The notes under the pieces: model-generated
What the model was told of the DNA's origin: nothing
What the model saw: only the letters and a program-made list of their open reading frames with translations
The model's database searches: none
Translations under genes and position numbers: made by a program
In this document: positions 3,972-21,572 of the stretch, one piece after another
Layout: each line of letters opens with the position of its first letter
Numbering within the stretch: position 1 is the stretch's first letter
Source: a virus
Taxonomy: Duplodnaviria > Heunggongvirae > Uroviricota > Caudoviricetes
IMG/VR virus record: IMGVR_UViG_2713896773_000026
Direction: 5' to 3' (one strand)
Length of the DNA: 24,192 bases

Positions 3972-4198
3972 TGGCTGATGCAATGGATCTCGTACAGCAG
4001 CGCGTTGAAGAAGAACGCCAGCGCCATATCCGTGCAGCCCGTGCCAAATCACCGGGCGTGTCACGCGTACTTTGCATTGAATGTGAAGCGCCAATTCCGC
4101 CAGCACGACGCCGCGCCATTCCGGGAGTGCAGCTTTGCATTACCTGTCAGGAAATCGCAGAACTGAAAGGCAAACATTACAACGGAGGTGCTGTATGA
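3971..4198 (+). CDS. TraR/DksA-family C4 zinc-finger protein
   Basis: CxxC-X17-CxxC (CIECEAPIPPARRRAIPGVQLCITC); 75 aa; typical of P2-like early regions. Confidence 0.8.
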   Translation: MADAMDLVQQRVEEERQRHIRAARAKSPGVSRVLCIECEAPIPPARRRAIPGVQLCITCQEIAELKGKHYNGGAV

Positions 4199-5052
4199 GC
4201 ACCATCCTGAAATGGGCGGGAAATAAAACCGCCATTATGCCAGAACTGAAAAAATACCTTCCTGCTGGCCCGCGACTGGTTGAACCTTTCGCGGGTTCCT
4301 GTGCTGTGATGATGGAAACGGATTATCCCAGCTATCTGGTTGCGGATATTAATCCTGATTTAATCAACCTCTATAAAAAGGTTGCCGCTGATTGTGAATC
4401 GTTTATATCTCGCGCCAGAGTTTTATTTGAGATCGCAAACAGGGAGGTGGCTTATTACAACATAAGGCAGGAGTTTAACTGCTCAACTGAAATTACTGAT
4501 TTCATGAAAGCGGTATATTTCCTGTATCTCAATCGTCACGGTTACCGTGGTTTATGTCGCTATAACAAGAGCGGGCATTTCAACATTCCCTACGGTAATT
4601 ATAAAAATCCGTATTTCCCTGAAAAAGAACTTCGCACATTTGCAGAAAAAGCCCAGCGAGCAACGTTTATCTGCGCCAGCTTTGATGAAACGCTGGCGAT
4701 GTTGAAGGCGGGAGATGTGGTGTATTGCGATCCGCCATATGACGGTACGTTTTCCGGCTATCACACTGATGGTTTCACTGAAGATGACCAGTATCACCTG
4801 GCATCCGTTCTTGAACATCGGTCATCAGAAGGACATCCGGTCATTGTTTCTAACAGTGACACATCCCTGATCCGTTCGCTGTATCGCAATTTTACTCACC
4901 ACTATATCAAGGTAAAACGCAGCATCGGTGTGGCAGCTGGCGAGGGTAAATCAGCAACAGAAATCATTGCTGTTTCCGGGCCGCGCTGCTGGATGGGATT
5001 TGATTATTCGCGTGGCGTGGATAGTTCTGCCGTGTACGGAGTACGTGCATGA
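4195..5052 (+). CDS. dam: DNA adenine methyltransferase (Dam-like, orphan MTase)
   Basis: N-terminal AdoMet motif LKWAGNK...EPFAGSCAV and catalytic DPPY motif ([10 protein letters not shown]); ATGA overlap with the upstream stop. Confidence 0.9.
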
Positions 5053-8433: not shown

Positions 8434-9552
8434 ATGTATCTTTTCAAGTATTACCGTCCGGACTTCTTCTTCGAGAAAGCTATTCGTTATAATGAATTAT
8501 ATTTTTCCGCTCCTGCGCAATTGAATGATCCCAATGATCTCAATATAGATTATCGCTTCGATAATAAATTGAAATTATGGGATATTTTATTGCGTTCTCC
8601 TTGCGATAAATCCTATAAAAATTTGAGTCACATATTGGATTTGAGTGATTTGAAAATACATAAGGGATTGAATCGTATTTTTAGAGGAAAAAAAATAAAA
8701 AGTAGCATTGAGTCATTAGATAGCCTGTTTGACTCACACGTTGATGAGATACGTAAGATCATAGATGATGGTTTACTACCTATCAATGTGATTAATTCTG
8801 CTATTTATGGAAATATTCCTGAACCACGCCAATATTTGGTTTCACTTTGCGAGAACAGTATCAAAGAAAGGTTGTATAGGAAGATAGTTCCTGCAGTATT
8901 CAGTGTGTCATTTTCAGCTAATGCGTTAGATCGTATGATGTGGGCGCATTATGCTGCTGGCTTTAGTGGTTGTGTTGTGATTTATGAAACGCAGGATTTT
9001 AATATTGATGGTATACCCTATACTGGAATGAAGCTAAGAGAAAATTTATTTTCATCAGATAAATTTAATTTTCCAGTTAAGCCAATAAAATATAGTAATC
9101 AGGCTAAAGAGGTTTCACTTCTAGACCCAAGCGCAAATGTTGCAGAGTTATTTTTAACTAAAAATAGATTTTGGAGATATGAAGCTGAATATCGAATGTT
9201 TATTCCGGAGGCAAATGCAGGAATAGGGAGTGAGCGGCATGTTCAAAGACGCGTAAATCGAAATATTGGACATATTTTTCATCATGATGCTAATGTTGTT
9301 AAAGGGATCATTTTTGGTCCTAGAATGTGTGAAATGAAAAAAGAAAGCATATGGAATTGTATCAAGTCAAATATGGAGAATTCAAATTCAACAATATGTT
9401 ATTTTTTTGACTCTGAGTTATTAGCATCAGGAAAGATTACTATTTCAAAAGGGCAACGAGCGGAAAAAATGAAAAATTTCACTTTGTTCAGGAACAAGTT
9501 AAGTCAGACGGAAATGGCTAAAGTTTTGAAGGAAATTGGCATTACGAACTAA
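8434..9552 (+). CDS. AT-rich cargo gene: 372-aa protein with a DUF2971-like N-terminal motif; candidate stand-alone anti-phage or accessory protein
   Basis: Long ORF, markedly AT-rich versus the prophage backbone; N-terminus LFKYYRPDFFFEKAIRYNELYFSAPAQLNDPND resembles the DUF2971 signature as remembered; own terminator downstream. Confidence 0.6.
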   Translation: MYLFKYYRPDFFFEKAIRYNELYFSAPAQLNDPNDLNIDYRFDNKLKLWDILLRSPCDKSYKNLSHILDLSDLKIHKGLNRIFRGKKIKSSIESLDSLFDSHVDEIRKIIDDGLLPINVINSAIYGNIPEPRQYLVSLCENSIKERLYRKIVPAVFSVSFSANALDRMMWAHYAAGFSGCVVIYETQDFNIDGIPYTGMKLRENLFSSDKFNFPVKPIKYSNQAKEVSLLDPSANVAELFLTKNRFWRYEAEYRMFIPEANAGIGSERHVQRRVNRNIGHIFHHDANVVKGIIFGPRMCEMKKESIWNCIKSNMENSNSTICYFFDSELLASGKITISKGQRAEKMKNFTLFRNKLSQTEMAKVLKEIGITN

Positions 9553-9618
9553 CCTAACAACAGTGCATGCCTATGCTGCCTGAATTTGCATGACCGTTTG
9601 AGGATCGTTTTTGCTAAG

Positions 9619-9642
9619 GCCCGCCAGAACTGGCGGGCTTTT
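9619..9642 (+). terminator. Rho-independent terminator after the DUF2971-like gene
   Basis: GC stem GCCCGCC/GGCGGGC with a 6-nt loop, followed by TTTT. Confidence 0.6.
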
Positions 9643-9687
9643 GCGTGGATCAGGCACCTGCATGAAAACCACTACACAAAGCGGGCA

Positions 9688-9706
9688 GGCGTGGCGGGGA
9701 TACGAG
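9688..9706. other. cos: cos-like sequence (GGCGTGGCGGGGATACGAG) in a GC-rich patch
   Basis: First 13 nt match the remembered 186 cohesive end GGCGTGGCGGGGA; the location between the accessory region and the portal side fits the P2/186 prophage map. Confidence 0.35.
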
Positions 9707-9719
9707 CGCGCGCAGCGGG

Positions 9720-9748
9720 TGGAAACTCAGATTTGAATGTTGTATAAA
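9720..9748 (+). promoter_or_regulatory. Candidate retron operon promoter (-35 TGGAAA, 17 bp, TG-adjacent -10 TATAAA)
   Basis: Hexamers about 30 bp upstream of the effector start; weak -35. Confidence 0.25.
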
Positions 9749-9777
9749 AGATGGGATCATTCTGAGGAAAAGTGGAT

Positions 9778-10683
9778 ATGAAAAAGAAAACTATTCCGGA
9801 GTTGCAGAAGCAAAATCTGGCAAATTTAATTAAAAGTCGGCTTTTTCAACAGAAAAATAAAAATAAAGTTACTGTTTTCCTTTGCGGGGGCGATTTGAAT
9901 GATCCGTTTTTTTGTAGAAATAAAGTTAAAAGAGTGTTGGAAACACATCCCAAAATAGAAATATTCTATCCTGAGGAGTTGTTTGATGAGCTTTTGTATG
10001 GACAAGGTCAGCATAGTCTTTTAAGTTTGGAGAATATTTTAGCTGATTCAGTCGATGTTATTATTATTATTCCTGAAAGCCCAGGGTCTTTCGCTGAATT
10101 GGGCGCATTTTCAAATAATGAAAAACTGTGCAAAAAAATGATATGTCTTCAGGATGACAAATTCAAACTTAAAAAAAGCTTTCTTAATTATGGGCCTATA
10201 AAACTGCTTCGGCGTGCTAATAGCGGTGCAGTATTGCGAGGAGATTTGTCGACTCTTGAAAGCTTGAGTACAGGTAAAGCTTTTTATAATAGAATTATAA
10301 AAAGTATTAATGACATCAAAAAAAATAACCCAGTTAATCACTCAATAGATAATATTCTTCACGCTCGGCGTTTTATACTGCCATGTATATATTTGATGGA
10401 TGGTATAGATAATATACTTCTATATGAGCTATTACATTTGGTGACTAAGAAAGATGCTATTCTTTGTGAAATTATCGTTAAGTCTGTTATTTCAAGCTTG
10501 ATTAAAGAGTCAATAATTAGGCGTTCAGTTCAAGGATACCATATTACAGAAATTGGTATGCAATACGTTCTTGAGCATTTTGATCGAAAGGCTTTGGACA
10601 ATCTACGACTGGATATGATGAACTTCGAAAATCGTGGTAAAACAATACTCCACTATGATAGGATGCGTTTTGCGCACCCTTAG
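9778..10683 (+). CDS. Retron effector, nucleoside 2-deoxyribosyltransferase-like (NDT) N-terminal domain with a C-terminal putative DNA-binding domain
   Basis: VTVFLCGGDLNDP and IIIIPESPGSFAELGAF motifs typical of the NDT fold; GAGGAAA RBS; 3' end overlaps the retron a1 repeat; AT-rich. Confidence 0.7.
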   Translation: MKKKTIPELQKQNLANLIKSRLFQQKNKNKVTVFLCGGDLNDPFFCRNKVKRVLETHPKIEIFYPEELFDELLYGQGQHSLLSLENILADSVDVIIIIPESPGSFAELGAFSNNEKLCKKMICLQDDKFKLKKSFLNYGPIKLLRRANSGAVLRGDLSTLESLSTGKAFYNRIIKSINDIKKNNPVNHSIDNILHARRFILPCIYLMDGIDNILLYELLHLVTKKDAILCEIIVKSVISSLIKESIIRRSVQGYHITEIGMQYVLEHFDRKALDNLRLDMMNFENRGKTILHYDRMRFAHP

Positions 10684-10831
10684 CGAGTGGCTTCTCCGGA
10701 AGTTCACTGGACAGTGTTTCGCTGTCCTACATACAATCTGAAGTTTTACCAGTTCCCTCATTGAAAGGAGAACATCTCCCGATGTTCTCCTTTCACTTCG
10801 GAATCTGATTTTTATGACGTAAGGGTGCGCT
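10671..10831 (+). ncRNA. msr-msd: Retron msr-msd non-coding RNA (msDNA template), flanked by a1/a2 inverted repeats
   Basis: a1 TGCGCACCCTTA (10671..10682) and a2 TAAGGGTGCGC (10820..10830) form an 11-bp inverted repeat; msr hairpin GGACAG-tgtttcg-CTGTCC (10709..10727); msd hairpin AAAGGAGAACATC-tccc-GATGTTCTCCTTT (10764..10793); ends 2 nt before the RT start. Confidence 0.8.
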
Positions 10832-10832
10832 C

Positions 10833-11807
10833 ATGACTTCCGCAACACCATCTCAGGTTTTTCGCTTACGCAATCTTGGATTGCCTGTTATGTCCTCTTT
10901 AGAGGATATGTCTAGAGAAATGCGTTTATCAGTAGACATACTCCGGTTGTACATTTATCGTGCTGACAAATACTATAAGGTTTATTCGTTGCCAAAAAGA
11001 GATGGCAAGAGATCCCGCATCATTTCACAGCCATCACGTGAGCTGAAGGCATTGCAAGCTTGGGTGTTAAGAAACATCCTTGATAAGTTACATTCATCCC
11101 CATTTTCCAAAGGCTTTGAAAAAGGGCAATCAATATTAAATAATGCCAGCCCACATGTAGGAGCTAACTATGTATTAAATATTGATTTAGAAGATTGTTT
11201 TAATACTATTCTGATAGAGAAAATCTATACTGTTTTTCATTCTCTGGGGTATAACTCTACTATTTCTAATGCTTTAGCAAGATTGTGTTCATTTAATGGT
11301 TCGCTACCTCAAGGTGCACCATCTTCTCCAAAGATTGCGAATCTTGTTTTAACTAAATTAGATTATAGAATACATGGATATGCAGGTAGTAAGGGGATCG
11401 TATTTACTCGATATGCCGATGATTTGACTTTATCTGCTCAATCTTTAAAAAAAATACTTAAAGCTAAGTCATTTGTATGCTCTATAATACCAAGTGAATC
11501 TTTGAAGGTTAATTATAATAAAGTTGCGATTCATGGCCCCAAAGCAAGGAAGGAGGTTACTGGGCTCGTTTTATCTATTGATAATGTTGGAGTTGGCAGA
11601 ATACGTTATCGCGAAATTAGAAGTAAGATCCATTATCTGGCAGTAAAAAGAAATTCTGATTTCGAACATGTTAAAGGACTTATTGCGTTTGTTAAAAGTG
11701 TAGACAAGAAAAACTATAGAAAATTGATGACTTTCTCAAATAAAATGTCTGAAGCATATGGGGTTGATCTAAGTGTTCTTTTTCCTAAAAACAAAAAGGC
11801 CATTTAA
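10833..11807 (+). CDS. ret: Retron-type reverse transcriptase
   Basis: 324 aa; RT motifs NIDLEDCF, LPQGAPSSP, YTRYADDLTLS (YADD at 11412..11423) and the retron-specific VTG motif (RKEVTGLV). Confidence 0.9.
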   Translation: MTSATPSQVFRLRNLGLPVMSSLEDMSREMRLSVDILRLYIYRADKYYKVYSLPKRDGKRSRIISQPSRELKALQAWVLRNILDKLHSSPFSKGFEKGQSILNNASPHVGANYVLNIDLEDCFNTILIEKIYTVFHSLGYNSTISNALARLCSFNGSLPQGAPSSPKIANLVLTKLDYRIHGYAGSKGIVFTRYADDLTLSAQSLKKILKAKSFVCSIIPSESLKVNYNKVAIHGPKARKEVTGLVLSIDNVGVGRIRYREIRSKIHYLAVKRNSDFEHVKGLIAFVKSVDKKNYRKLMTFSNKMSEAYGVDLSVLFPKNKKAI

Positions 11808-11817
11808 TGGCCTTTTT
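11793..11817. terminator. Bidirectional hairpin terminator between the convergent RT and portal genes
   Basis: Palindrome AAAAAGGCCAT-tta-ATGGCCTTTTT with A/T runs on both sides; overlaps the RT stop. Confidence 0.55.
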
Positions 11818-11822
11818 GTTTA

Positions 11823-12854
11823 TTAGGTAATTGAATAACTCACGAAATTAATAACTTCTTCATTTATCCATTCGTTCAGCTCTTCTAGTCTTTTTTGTAA
11901 AGGGATGAGTTCATTCCTCACAAAAACATTAGCAGCTTTCTCTACATCCCCAAATCCTCCAACATTATTAGGCATAATCCCCATCATTTGCGGTGGCACA
12001 CGATGCGCCGCCATCATGTCATCCCGGCTCACGTTCTTGATGTTCAGAAACTCATCCTTCGCCGCGACCTCTGACAACGGGATAATCTGAAGCCCGTCCT
12101 TTTTGCCGTTAGGCGAGTACATAAACAGGTTGCGGAAGTTACCCGGTCCTTTGGCGCTTTTCATCGCGTTGCGGAGGTTGTTCACGTCCTCCTGGTTCTG
12201 CGCGGCATCGGTCATGTACATGATGAAGCCAGCATGACTGCCGTTTATGTAATACTTTCGACGGAACAGCGTGGCGGACTCATTGAGCAGGGCGGACGGA
12301 ATAGCAGAAAGATAGCCGGGCAGGCCATAGATCTCCTGATTTATGTCCGGTTCCATCAGATGGAAAATGCTGCCTTTCGTGAACTGATACGGTTGCGTGG
12401 TCATGCCGTATTGCACAAACCAGTAGGTATCTAGGTCTAATCCACGTCGGGTGTATTTTGCCAGCGCAGGCTCAAGAGCGATAACTTCACCGAATCGGTT
12501 CGTGCGTTTCTCCAGGTAGGCGTTACCAAATACCAGATAGTCCTGCACAAAACGCGAAAAAGCCTGCTGGCTGAGCAGCGGATGAGGGATATAGGTACTG
12601 GTCAGAATGTTGCACTTTACTGCAATCGGGGAACTGTGATGCACGGCGGCGCGGAAGGTGCGCGCCAGTCCGTCAAAGCTGACGGGCGGCTCATACCAAC
12701 GGTCCATCTGTACGCATTCCACATAATCCAGCAGTTCTCGGCGGTCCAGAACAGGAACGGGATCGCCGAAGCTGAATGCTTCGGCTGTAGTTTGACTTTT
12801 AAGCTGGATCTGTTTCGTCGCCGCAGCGCGGTTCTTCTTACTCTTTCCCATCAA
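11823..12854 (-). CDS. Q: Portal (capsid portal protein, P2 gpQ family)
   Basis: 343 aa; position and orientation next to the terminase gene as in P2 (Q-P leftward operon). Confidence 0.85.
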   Translation of the reverse strand: MMGKSKKNRAAATKQIQLKSQTTAEAFSFGDPVPVLDRRELLDYVECVQMDRWYEPPVSFDGLARTFRAAVHHSSPIAVKCNILTSTYIPHPLLSQQAFSRFVQDYLVFGNAYLEKRTNRFGEVIALEPALAKYTRRGLDLDTYWFVQYGMTTQPYQFTKGSIFHLMEPDINQEIYGLPGYLSAIPSALLNESATLFRRKYYINGSHAGFIMYMTDAAQNQEDVNNLRNAMKSAKGPGNFRNLFMYSPNGKKDGLQIIPLSEVAAKDEFLNIKNVSRDDMMAAHRVPPQMMGIMPNNVGGFGDVEKAANVFVRNELIPLQKRLEELNEWINEEVINFVSYSIT

Positions 12855-14554
12855 AAAATCTCCACAATATTGCTGGTATTGGCGGATTCGCCCTGCAGCG
12901 GTTCGTTAAACAGTGCGTGCATCGTTGCCCAGGCCAGATCGGCGTGGCTGGCTTCTTCGCTGCGGCTGGCTTCATAGGTCGGGCGGTTGCCACTGGCGGT
13001 GGTGGCGCGACGGATTGCCATAAAGGACTGCGCTATGTCGGTGTGTCCGGCGTCAAACTCCAGACGGCGGTGGCTGATAATGTCGTAGGCCTTGAGTACC
13101 AGGGCGTTTTTAACGTTGGGGTTGTAGACAAACTCCCGGACGGCAGGAAAAAACGCTTTCACGTTCTCGTAAACCCCGTGACCAACGCCGGTTGAGTCGA
13201 TACCGATATAGGTCACGTTGTACTGTTCGGTCAGTTTTTTGATGGCGTCAGCCTGGGCGCGGAAGTCCATTCCGCGCCACTGGTGACGCTCAAGAATGCG
13301 GAACTTACCGCCCGGCACGGCTGGCGGCGCCACCACCACGCATCCGGCGCTGTCGCCGTTCTGCGTACCTTTCGCCGGGTCATATCCGATCCACACTTCG
13401 CGCCAGCCAAACGGGCGCAGGGCCAGTGCATGAAAGTCGGTCCAGACTTCCCAACTGTCCACCATGCACGCCTGCAGCTCGCTGAGTGGGAACACAGACG
13501 CGAGATCGTCCACGAACTCACACATCAGCAGGTTCTGGTATTCGTCCGGGCTGTACTCCATGCGCAACTGGTCGAGGTCGAACAGGTTACAGCCGCCGCG
13601 CACCGCATCTTCCACAGTGACTATCTGGCGGTACTGCCCGTCTGCGCACAGCAGGCCGGGGGCCAGATTGCTGTGGGACAGGTCGATGTCCACCTTATCG
13701 GCTTTGTTGCGCCCTCGGTTGAACAGCGCACCGGACCAGAACGGATAAGCACTGTGTGTCAGGCTGGATGGCGTGGAAAAATAGGTTTGTCGCCATTTTT
13801 TGTGAATAGCCATACCGGAAGCCACTTTGCGCAGCTCCTGGAATTTCGGTATCCAGAAATATTCATCCAGATACAGGTTGCCGTGGTAACTCTGGGCCGT
13901 GCGGGCATTGGTGCCGAGGAAGTACAGCGTGGCCCCGTTAGGAAGCACCATCGGATCGCCTTTCAGCTCCACCTCCACTTCTTTGGCGAAGTCGATGATG
14001 TACTGCTTAAAGACGTGGGCCTGAGCCTTGCTGGCGGAAAGGAAAATCTGGTTACGCCCGGTTAGCAGGGCGTCAATCAGGGCTTCACGGGCAAAATAGA
14101 AGGTCGCGCCGATCTGGCGTGACTTCAGCAGGTTGCGGATGCGGTTGGTTTTTCCGGCTTCCCACCAGTGGCGCTGGTAGTTGAACATGGAGGAATGGAA
14201 GATTTCTTCCAGCTTCTCAATCTGTTCATCGGTGAAAACGTTCTTTTCCGGCTGACGGCGCGGGCCTTTGTTGCGGTTGGCGACGTTAGGGTTTAAGTCG
14301 GCTTCGTTGCCGCCATTGTTAAACTTGCCGATCCGCGCATGGCGCTCCGACTGGCGCGCCAGCAGGTCAATCTCTTTGAAATCTTTCCCTTCTTTGTGCT
14401 CCTTCATAATGAGCTGGCAGTAGCGTGCGGCGGTGGTGAGCTGCATCTGATCCAGCGGCCCATAGTCACCCCACTTGTCGCGTTTTTTCCAGCTGTGAAC
14501 GGTTGCAACTTTCTCGCCCAGCATTTCAGCAATGCGGGCTATCTGCCCAGACAC
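12851..14554 (-). CDS. P: Terminase large (ATPase) subunit, P2 gpP family, 5'-truncated at a deletion junction and probably non-functional
   Basis: 567 aa; nuclease-domain-like segments; the upstream in-frame sequence is antisense to the sheath gene, so the native N-terminus and promoter are missing; the GTG start is an ORF-caller artefact. Confidence 0.8.
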
Positions 14555-21359: not shown

Positions 21360-21415
21360 TCGTTAAAAAACAGTGTTTCTAACATCATGATTTTAAACAG
21401 CTTAAATTTCAGGCA

Positions 21416-21460
21416 ACAAAAAACCCATCAACCTTGAACCGAAATGGCGGGGTTGATGGG
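21416..21460 (-). terminator. Candidate rho-independent terminator downstream of ybjL
   Basis: 10-bp stem CCCATCAACC/GGTTGATGGG (17-nt loop) followed on the minus strand by a U-run (plus-strand A6). Confidence 0.4.
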
Positions 21461-21572
21461 CTCCACAAAATGGGGACATCAAAGAAAAGCAGTGGCACTA
21501 ATTAAGACTGATGCCCTGCGGAAAAGTTCTGCGGTTGTGCAAAAAAATTTCATTTTCAGGGCAACTTCAGTT

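Follow-up and report, generated by a model that had tools for sequence, protein, structure and literature searches.

A probable type II-A3 retron of the Ec86 family, with a divergent msd hairpin, in the cos-proximal slot of a P2/186-like prophage

Results and discussion

The window analysed here, a stretch of 24,192 nucleotides of caudoviral DNA (IMG/VR record IMGVR_UViG_2713896773_000026), contains between positions 9715 and 11822 a 2.1-kb AT-rich cassette, which extends from just past the cos site to the portal stop codon (11823). We conclude with high confidence that this cassette is an intact retron of the Retron-Eco1 (Ec86) family, type II-A3 as defined by Mestre 2020 (PMC7736814), which a P2/186-like prophage carries in its cos-proximal hotspot as accessory cargo. 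The initial annotation, made from the letters alone, had called it an Ec86-like type II retron; the PADLOC II-A calls, which fall on the same sub-models as those of Ec86, bear this out, and the subtype can now be refined to II-A3. The allele is a rare sister of Ec86 and as such ordinary for the field. Its features and landmarks are as follows:

9688..9706, plus strand: homologue of the cos cohesive end, GGCGTGGCGGGGATACGAG, left landmark of the slot, outside the retron (alignment to the phage 186 cos)
9715..11822, no strand assigned: swappable cargo cassette, the whole retron (GC drop; alternative content in relatives)
9778..10683, plus strand: retron effector, 301 aa (PADLOC, NCBIfam, PDB homology)
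10671..10831, plus strand: msr-msd ncRNA, ~160 nt, approximate ends (Ec86 homology, fold, covariation)
10672..10682, plus strand: a1 inverted repeat GCGCACCCTTA (perfect 11-nt complement of 10820-10830; same in Ec86)
10683, plus strand: presumptive branching G, in UUAGC (context CCCTTAGCGAG; unpaired)
10686-10708 and 10709-10727, plus strand: two msr stem-loops (MFE fold)
10737..10818, plus strand: msd template, 82 nt (boundaries transferred from the Ec86 msd by alignment)
10750-10807, plus strand: long DNA stem-loop region of the msd (inverted repeat with 27-nt arms)
10820..10830, plus strand: a2 inverted repeat TAAGGGTGCGC (perfect 11-nt partner of a1)
10833..11807, plus strand: retron reverse transcriptase (RT), 324 aa (PADLOC, Pfam, NCBIfam, PDB homology)
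11793..11817, both strands: bidirectional intrinsic-terminator hairpin AAAAAGGCCAT-TTA-ATGGCCTTTTT, for the RT gene (plus) and the portal gene (minus) (fold energy, U-runs)
11823-12854, minus strand: portal gene, convergent with the RT gene

The reverse transcriptase and the effector

Both open reading frames lie on the plus strand where they had been placed without database searches, the effector at 9772/9778-10683 and the RT at 10833-11807. The RT motifs quoted at that stage (QGxxxSP, YADD and VTG) are present as QGAPSSP at residues 160-166, YADD at 194-197 and VTG at 242-244, together with NAxxH in the form NASPH (104-108), and their residues are invariant across a 22-sequence family alignment; NAxxH and VTG are known as motifs of retron RTs (PMC12640716). 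PADLOC classifies the protein as RT_II-A (PDLC02941, 4.9e-123), and this best-scoring model (408 bits) is likewise the best one for the Ec86 RT (424 bits). The protein also matches Pfam RVT_1 (1e-24) and NCBIfam NF038233 (retron_St85_RT; 272 bits, cut-off 235), and its closest solved structure is that of the Ec86 RT (7v9u; 5e-124, 59% identity), followed by Kva2 at 1.9e-34. RefSeq already labels both genes of the cassette (WP_050488517.1 and WP_032301626.1) "retron St85 family". Judged by the PADLOC model and the closest structure, the RT appears to belong to the Ec86 lineage (Mestre clade 9).

Weak secondary matches to models of group II intron RTs, Drt2 and Drt3a, and to group II RT structures, could be taken to mean that the RT represents another prokaryotic class (group II intron, DGR or Abi/DRT) and that the hairpins next to it are incidental. 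However, these models reach only 29–60 bits against cut-offs of 200–390 (60 bits against 300 for the group II intron RT/maturase family TIGR04416), versus 272 against 235 for the retron model, the protein has no maturase or endonuclease domain, and the adjoining ncRNA is homologous to the Ec86 msr-msd. This reading has virtually no chance of being correct and is refuted: the RT sides with the retron RTs, and membership of the cassette among retrons follows from the RT motifs together with the adjacent a1 and a2 repeats, unpaired G, msr stem-loops and msd hairpin.

The upstream reading frame can start at a GTG (9772), giving 303 aa, or at an ATG (9778), giving 301 aa, the latter being the choice of PGAP. 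Both motifs from which an NDT fold had first been read, VFLCGGDLNDP and IIPESPGSFAELGAF, are found in it. A Pfam search with the effector found no domain; its assignment as NDT-like rests on PADLOC (NDT_II-A PDLC02930, 2.6e-97), NCBIfam (NF038232, "retron St85 family"; 186 bits, cut-off 100) and PDB homology, the solved NDT-like effector of Ec86 (7v9x_C) aligning with it end to end (residues 1–307; 5e-92, 50% identity). By this homology the protein is predicted to comprise an N-terminal NDT-like (N-glycosidase) domain and a C-terminal DNA-binding domain. The segment GSFAELGAF keeps Glu107, the equivalent of the Glu swapped for Ala in PDB 8qbl (8qbl_G) and the presumptive catalytic residue.

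The msr-msd RNA

The structured RNA that had been noticed between the two genes is real, as judged by the perfect 11-nt a1/a2 pairing and by its minimum free energy of -73.7 kcal/mol, compared with -38.1 +/- 3.6 in shuffled sequences (z = -9.9; none of 200 shuffles is as stable). In the consensus structure of nine family variants covariation is seen in 17 of 47 pairs, a score reached by none of 500 shuffles, and 97% of cells are paired versus 37–43% in slid controls. Compensatory changes occur in the msr helices (two pairs in helix 2, four in helix 3), and helix 5 of the msd has seven covarying pairs. Pairwise alignment with the Ec86 msr-msd reveals homology, with a mean column identity of 82%, a shared consensus fold, and identical a1, a2 and branch-G context. 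In an Rfam scan of the whole window RybB was the sole hit, and none of the retron ncRNA families reached threshold; the ncRNA is therefore established by Ec86 homology and covariation.

The branch context CCCTTAGCGAG is invariant in all nine variants, and G10683 is unpaired in both the MFE and the consensus folds; by analogy with the biochemistry of Ec86 it is the putative branch point. This nucleotide doubles as the final base of the TAG that closes the effector gene, so that the last codons and the stop codon of that gene overlap with a1 and the presumptive branching G. At the other end, direct reading of the sequence places the ATG of the RT gene 2 nt downstream of a2, compared with 7 nt in Ec86, and the Shine-Dalgarno sequence of the RT likely sits within a2. 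The presumptive boundaries of the msd, like the branching G, were transferred by alignment and depend in part on the 86-nt Ec86 msd, a sequence found exactly in BL21, and the msDNA is predicted to be ~82 nt long. A search of the msd for CCWGG and GATC sites found neither, although chance absence of CCWGG from 82 nt is statistically not unusual. Among the family variants, CCWGG is present in the msd hairpin of four of the nine, all of them from the Ec86-like subclade.

Relationship to Ec86 and other retrons

Ec86 of E. coli B/BL21 (PDB 7v9u, 7v9x, 8qbk) shares with the cassette the order effector, msr-msd, RT, the same kind of two msr stem-loops and long msd hairpin, the motifs of the RT and the Glu of the effector; in PADLOC its proteins, too, fall on PDLC02941 and PDLC02930, at scores close to those of the cassette. 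Nevertheless, the cassette is not Ec86 itself: identity is 59% for the RT and 50% for the effector at the amino acid level and 68.7% (about 69%) for the DNA, the msd is 82 nt long rather than 86 nt, the sequence of its stem differs, and CCWGG is absent. The initial annotation had likewise seen a distinct family member rather than Ec86, a view with which these figures agree. A blastn search of the GenBank phage collection with the retron gave no match, not even to Ec86, and we found no experimental report of the allele in literature searches that covered the RefSeq accessions, the apex sequence of the msd and the supplementary files of a retron census preprint.

Both proteins score above the NCBIfam cut-offs of the "St85 family", a label common to this cassette and to Retron-Sen2 (St85) of Salmonella Typhimurium. 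Sen2, a II-A1 retron, also combines an NDT-like effector bearing a DNA-binding domain with a retron RT, in the gene order msrmsd-rcaT-rrtT. The tripartite toxin/antitoxin logic is common to both (PMC12640716); Sen2 differs in having a clade 1 RT and a IA/IIA1-type ncRNA (PMC7736814). The shared family name, which NCBIfam and PGAP give to both proteins, is one reason to ask if the cassette works like Sen2, with the RT-msDNA neutralizing a toxic effector and no Eco1-style filament or Dcm-type trigger; another is that an msd lacking CCWGG offers no canonical site to the trigger reported for Eco1. We consider such a mode of action unlikely, as the PADLOC sub-models favoured by Ec86 give the proteins 408 and 324 bits, far above the 223/197 and 128/38 bits from the remaining II-A sub-models, and Sen2 belongs to another subtype, RT clade and ncRNA type. 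An equally small likelihood attaches to the release of the effector, as in the Sen2 model, by Dam methylation of the msDNA or by a RecE-type nuclease that degrades it; triggers acting on the msDNA have been described for Sen2 (PMC12640716), but with no GATC in the msd, Dam could not act either. The Sen2-like and Eco1-like models are alike in overall logic, and the differences between them lie mainly in the trigger and the assembly.

The cos-portal slot

The cassette has a GC content of 0.354 versus 0.546 for the portal and terminase genes, in agreement with its first description as AT-rich. What had been called a cos-like sequence is indeed homologous to cos: GGCGTGGCGGGGATACGAG aligns with the 19-nt cos annotated in phage 186 (1–19), the first 13 nt being the same in both, its flank is 77% identical to phage 186 over 93 nt, and the cos region of the window is identical to that of the Ec86 prophage of BL21. 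The matches to phage 186 and to BL21 both stop at about 9713–9714, in other E. coli genomes the identity is 100% through 9714 and breaks down beyond it, and the region 9562–9725 is kept in 87 records of P2/186-like phages. In the interval from cos to the portal gene (Q/W), where the window carries the retron, strain p10A has a 557-aa hypothetical protein and BL21 has Ec86, with the left junction of the latter also a few bases after cos; hence the cos-proximal location ascribed earlier to retrons of 186-related prophages holds for Ec86, in the same slot and at the same left junction. Among the 20 Ec86-family loci from IMG/VR that we examined (L005-L023 and L027), a portal homologue is convergent downstream of the RT in all 20, and a cos-like motif lies ~90 nt upstream of the effector in 19.

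The same P2/186 slot also accommodates Retron-Eco2 (Ec67) and other cargo (old, tin, etc.), as indicated by the title of Dodd & Egan 1996, cited in PMC6868368. Ec67 is, however, a type I-C RT-Toprim fusion, and the match to it is only 1.3e-50 (172 bits, cut-off 450). The gpA-gpQ region of P2 was described as a defence hotspot by Rousset 2022 (PMC9122126), and the cassette illustrates the swapping of alleles at this already documented cos-portal slot of P2/186-like prophages.

At the right end the initial annotation had placed a portal-gene terminator. A strong bidirectional hairpin is indeed present (-21.8 kcal/mol on the plus and -20.8 on the minus strand; z = -6.0 and -7.5; U-runs on both sides), but it belongs to the cassette and is distinct from the 186 tW sequence. 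It overlaps the RT stop codon, and Ec86 also has a bidirectional terminator overlapping the RT end, the hairpin at the equivalent place in BL21 being analogous and non-homologous. A simple terminator scan did not list the hairpin at 11793–11817. In a promoter scan, promoter-like sites were no commoner than in shuffles; by eye only, a TGGAAA-17-TATAAA candidate can be seen near 9712–9739, as can a conserved TATGAT upstream of a1.

Distribution and maintenance

The exact locus is present in four of 5,426 complete E. coli genomes, among which the cassette is 99.7–100% identical, and the RT is identical to the same degree (99.7–100%) in three viral contigs. In a related genome, LR-48, the retron was lost through IS1 and is therefore dispensable, and compared with KFu015 the prophage copy in the window lacks 12.3 kb that hold morphogenesis genes, an apparent deletion at 14540/14541. 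Rarity, IS1-mediated loss and the apparently incomplete prophage would all fit a passenger that is in decay or inactive, one that descends from a retron but has ceased to make msDNA and to defend. We regard this as very improbable: both reading frames are full length with all catalytic motifs present, a1 and a2 are perfect, the RNA fold is intact, and the near-identical copies come from unrelated isolates (river water, cattle, calf igloo). The conservation at 99.7–100% across four genomes and three viral contigs argues for a cassette that is maintained.

A possible mode of action

For the intact Ec86-family retron a mode of action can be proposed by analogy, in which msDNA, filaments, NAD+ hydrolysis and defence are all transferred from a homologue at 50–59% protein identity. 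An operon of effector, msr-msd and RT would be transcribed rightward from near cos; in the transcript a1 (10672–10682) would pair with a2 (10820–10830) and expose the unpaired G10683. Once bound to the msr stem-loops, the RT would prime from the 2'-OH of G10683 and reverse-transcribe the template from 10818 to 10737; the product would be a branched msDNA, ~82 nt in length, that contains a long DNA hairpin. The RT-msDNA complex could then bind the effector via its C-terminal DNA-binding domain and restrain the NDT-like N-glycosidase domain, within a filament in the case of Ec86. If a phage factor were to modify the msDNA hairpin or perturb it, the effector would be released or activated and would then hydrolyse NAD+, leading to abortive infection that may shield the lysogen population, and hence the prophage, from competing phages. 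For Eco1, filaments, a Dcm trigger and NAD+ depletion are covered by secondary descriptions (PMC12640716, PMC13158370, PMC12746101).

Given an msd hairpin that is unlike its Ec86 counterpart and contains no CCWGG, the trigger of this allele is probably other than the Dcm-type methylation reported for Ec86. More tentatively, and with some doubt on our part, the allele may have evolved a sensor specificity unlike that of Ec86, and the Ec86-family alleles in the slot may form a natural series of retargeted msDNA sensors; the different msDNA stem and the lack of CCWGG are the reasons to expect, on this reading, a response to a non-Dcm phage trigger. Should it hold, an Eco1-like E. coli retron with an 82-nt msd would as a by-product offer a possible orthogonal or better scaffold for editing and recombineering.

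PADLOC and PGAP already recognise the retron, and the finding opens no new question. It does provide a second natural and intact allele of the best-studied retron (Ec86/Eco1) within E. coli, with a re-shaped msDNA hairpin. Comparison of the two alleles could reveal the msDNA features that set trigger specificity and could show how the contacts between effector and msDNA co-evolve.

Retron proteins

The cassette and its borders comprise the following features (a1 and a2 are the inverted repeats flanking the ncRNA):

9688-9706, cos homologue GGCGTGGCGGGGATACGAG, aligning with the 19-nt cos annotated in phage 186
9772/9778-10683, + strand, retron effector (303 aa from GTG, 301 aa from the ATG used by RefSeq)
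10672-10682 and 10820-10830, + strand, a1/a2 inverted repeats (perfect, 11 nt)
10683, + strand, presumptive branching G, also the final base of the effector TAG stop codon (read from the sequence)
10750-10807, + strand, msd-region hairpin with arms of 27 nt
10833-11807, + strand, retron RT (324 aa)
11793-11817, both strands, bidirectional terminator hairpin (-21.8 and -20.8 kcal/mol) containing the RT stop codon

The initial annotation proposed an Ec86-like retron carried as prophage cargo; its observations hold, and its interpretation is supported. In PADLOC the effector is assigned to NDT_II-A (PDLC02930, 2.6e-97) and the RT to RT_II-A (PDLC02941, 4.9e-123), which are also the best sub-models, with similar scores, for the Ec86 effector and RT from BL21(DE3). 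Judged against the curated cut-offs of the NCBIfam "retron St85 family" models, the effector scores 186 bits (cut-off 100) and the RT 272 bits (cut-off 235); for the RT, a group II intron class was rejected, the corresponding NCBIfam model giving 60 bits where 300 are required. The best PDB match of the RT is the Ec86 RT (7v9u, 5e-124), followed among retron RTs by Kva2 (1.9e-34), and that of the effector is the Ec86 effector (7v9x_C, 5e-92) over its full length, in keeping with the NDT fold expected of the upstream ORF. All motifs quoted earlier for the two proteins were found in the ORFs, and NAxxH, QGxxxSP, YADD and VTG are invariant across a 22-sequence RT family alignment. The effector also keeps the Glu of GSF(A/T)ELGAF, which is replaced by Ala in PDB 8qbl and which we infer to be catalytic. 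By BLASTP, the RT is 59% and the effector 50% identical to its Ec86 counterpart, and the two alleles share about 69% nucleotide identity; together with an msd of 82 nt, these values bear out the view of a distinct family member rather than Ec86 itself.

The msr-msd RNA

The 149-nt gap between the effector and RT genes, with the final 12 nt of the effector gene, encodes a strongly structured RNA (MFE -73.7 kcal/mol versus -38.1 +/- 3.6 in dinucleotide shuffles, z = -9.9). A scan of IMG/VR for the RT family yielded 20 close loci, which with BL21 provide nine distinct ncRNA variants. In their RNAalifold consensus, the a1/a2 stem, two stem-loops in the msr and an msd hairpin in two parts make up five helices, with compensatory changes in 17 of 47 pairs and 97.1% of cells paired, versus 37–43% when partners are slid by 1–3 columns. 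The observed covariation score was matched by none of 500 column shuffles, in a test comprising nine sequences and a consensus structure derived from those same sequences.

In an alignment with the Ec86 locus of BL21, no difference is seen in a1 (GCGCACCCTTA), a2 (TAAGGGTGCGC) or the branch context (CCCTTAGCGAG); the stems differ by paired substitutions. The 86-nt Ec86 msd template has an exact copy in BL21, and its transfer through the alignment places the window msd template at 10737-10818 (82 nt). The a2 repeat, as read from the sequence, ends 2 nt upstream of the RT start codon and likely contains the RT Shine-Dalgarno sequence. The best sigma-70-like site of the region, TGGACA-18-TACAAT (10/12; 10708-10737, + strand), lies inside the second msr stem-loop and is probably a chance match, because such sites are no more numerous than in shuffles.

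The cos-portal slot

The window is 100% identical to the chromosome of E. coli KFu015, where its counterpart is a P2/186-like prophage between rcdA and rybB-ybjL. The cassette is indeed AT-rich (GC 0.354 versus 0.546 in the adjoining portal and terminase genes). The cos-like sequence reported on its left proved to be the homologue of the phage 186 cos and is the same in the BL21 Ec86 prophage; similarity to phage 186 and to the BL21 prophage breaks off at about 9713-9714, where many further E. coli prophages, 100% identical to the window as far as this point, also diverge. On the right, the portal-gene terminator was recovered as the bidirectional hairpin, and the portal gene, convergent with the RT, ends at 11823. 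The slot is occupied by Ec86 in BL21, whereas in phage 186 it is filled by only about 145 nt and the terminator tW. A convergent portal homologue (60–100% identical) lies downstream of the RT in all 20 IMG/VR loci, in one of them (L022) as a short fragment only, and in 19 of 20 the effector is preceded, at about 90 nt, by a cos-like motif. That 186-related prophages carry retrons at this position, as previously stated, is borne out by Ec86 in BL21; the slot contents also agree with Dodd & Egan 1996, going by its title (cited in PMC6868368), and fit the gpA-gpQ defence hotspot that Rousset et al. 2022 (PMC9122126) describe in P2.

Two further prophages have other contents in this slot. The p10A prophage, about 97% identical to the remainder of the window, has no retron there and encodes a single uncharacterised 557-aa hypothetical protein (L086 3759-5432), which may be another defence candidate. 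In LR-48 (L004 4248-5214), IS1 adjoins the last 214 nt of the RT (99.5% identical), all that is left of a retron lost by IS-mediated deletion.

Other features of the prophage

Across cos, within the same hotspot, lies another AT-rich gene (8434-9552, + strand, GC 0.33, 372 aa), with a hit to PADLOC's candidate defence family PDC-S31 (1.3e-23) and a weak one, under the gathering score, to Pfam DUF2971. Many E. coli prophages that have no retron contain this gene, and the DUF2971 annotation is absent under the match in two of four retron-bearing genomes; therefore, this gene and the cassette assort independently.

The KFu015 prophage, in other respects 100% identical, contains 12,277 bp that are missing from the window at 14540/14541; this stretch covers the tail-fibre invertase and the genes for capsid, lysis, baseplate and tail fibres. 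At the junction the terminase ATPase gene, broken off 76 nt after its 5' end, runs into an internal part of the tail sheath gene. If this deletion is real, the window prophage is defective; it could be an artefact of assembly or window construction.

The rybB sRNA gene (21415-21493, - strand, Rfam 105 bits) adjoins the ogr end of the prophage. Its 3'-terminal 14 nt, AACAAAAAACCCAT (21415-21428), recur beside rcdA in KFu015 (L001 3364-3377), and this repetition at both prophage ends suggests integration at the rybB 3' end with AACAAAAAACCCAT as the att core. In strain 97.3 (NZ_CP061758.1) the otherwise identical prophage aligns as three pieces, with an ltrA group II intron RT/maturase under the match, which suggests insertion of a group II intron.

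Predicted mechanism

[quoted passage not shown] PMC12640716, PMC13158370 and PMC12746101 describe, at second hand, filaments and NAD+ depletion for Ec86 and, as its trigger, a phage Dcm-like methyltransferase modifying the msDNA. Among the nine ncRNA variants, CCWGG is carried only by Ec86-like ones (four); the 82-nt window msd contains neither CCWGG nor GATC, an absence not statistically remarkable for this length. Given this absence, a trigger different from that of Ec86 is plausible. Dam-type methylation of msDNA has been reported as a trigger of Retron-Sen2 (PMC12640716), and the prophage has its own DNA adenine methylase gene (4135-5052, + strand; annotation in KFu015); speculatively, an msd free of GATC may avoid self-activation by this enzyme.

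Distribution and status

The exact cassette occurs in four of 5,426 complete E. coli genomes and the Ec86 allele in 48 of them, mostly B-lineage laboratory strains. The RT cluster has 71 member sequences and shares 75% identity with its closest neighbour cluster. We found no paper naming the RefSeq accessions or msd sequence of the window retron, and no entry for it in the retron census supplements searched. Both genes are already labelled "retron St85 family" in RefSeq, and the retron is recognisable with standard annotation tools. It is a new, uncharacterised allele of the well-known type II-A3 retron family (defined in PMC7736814) at a well-known prophage hotspot.
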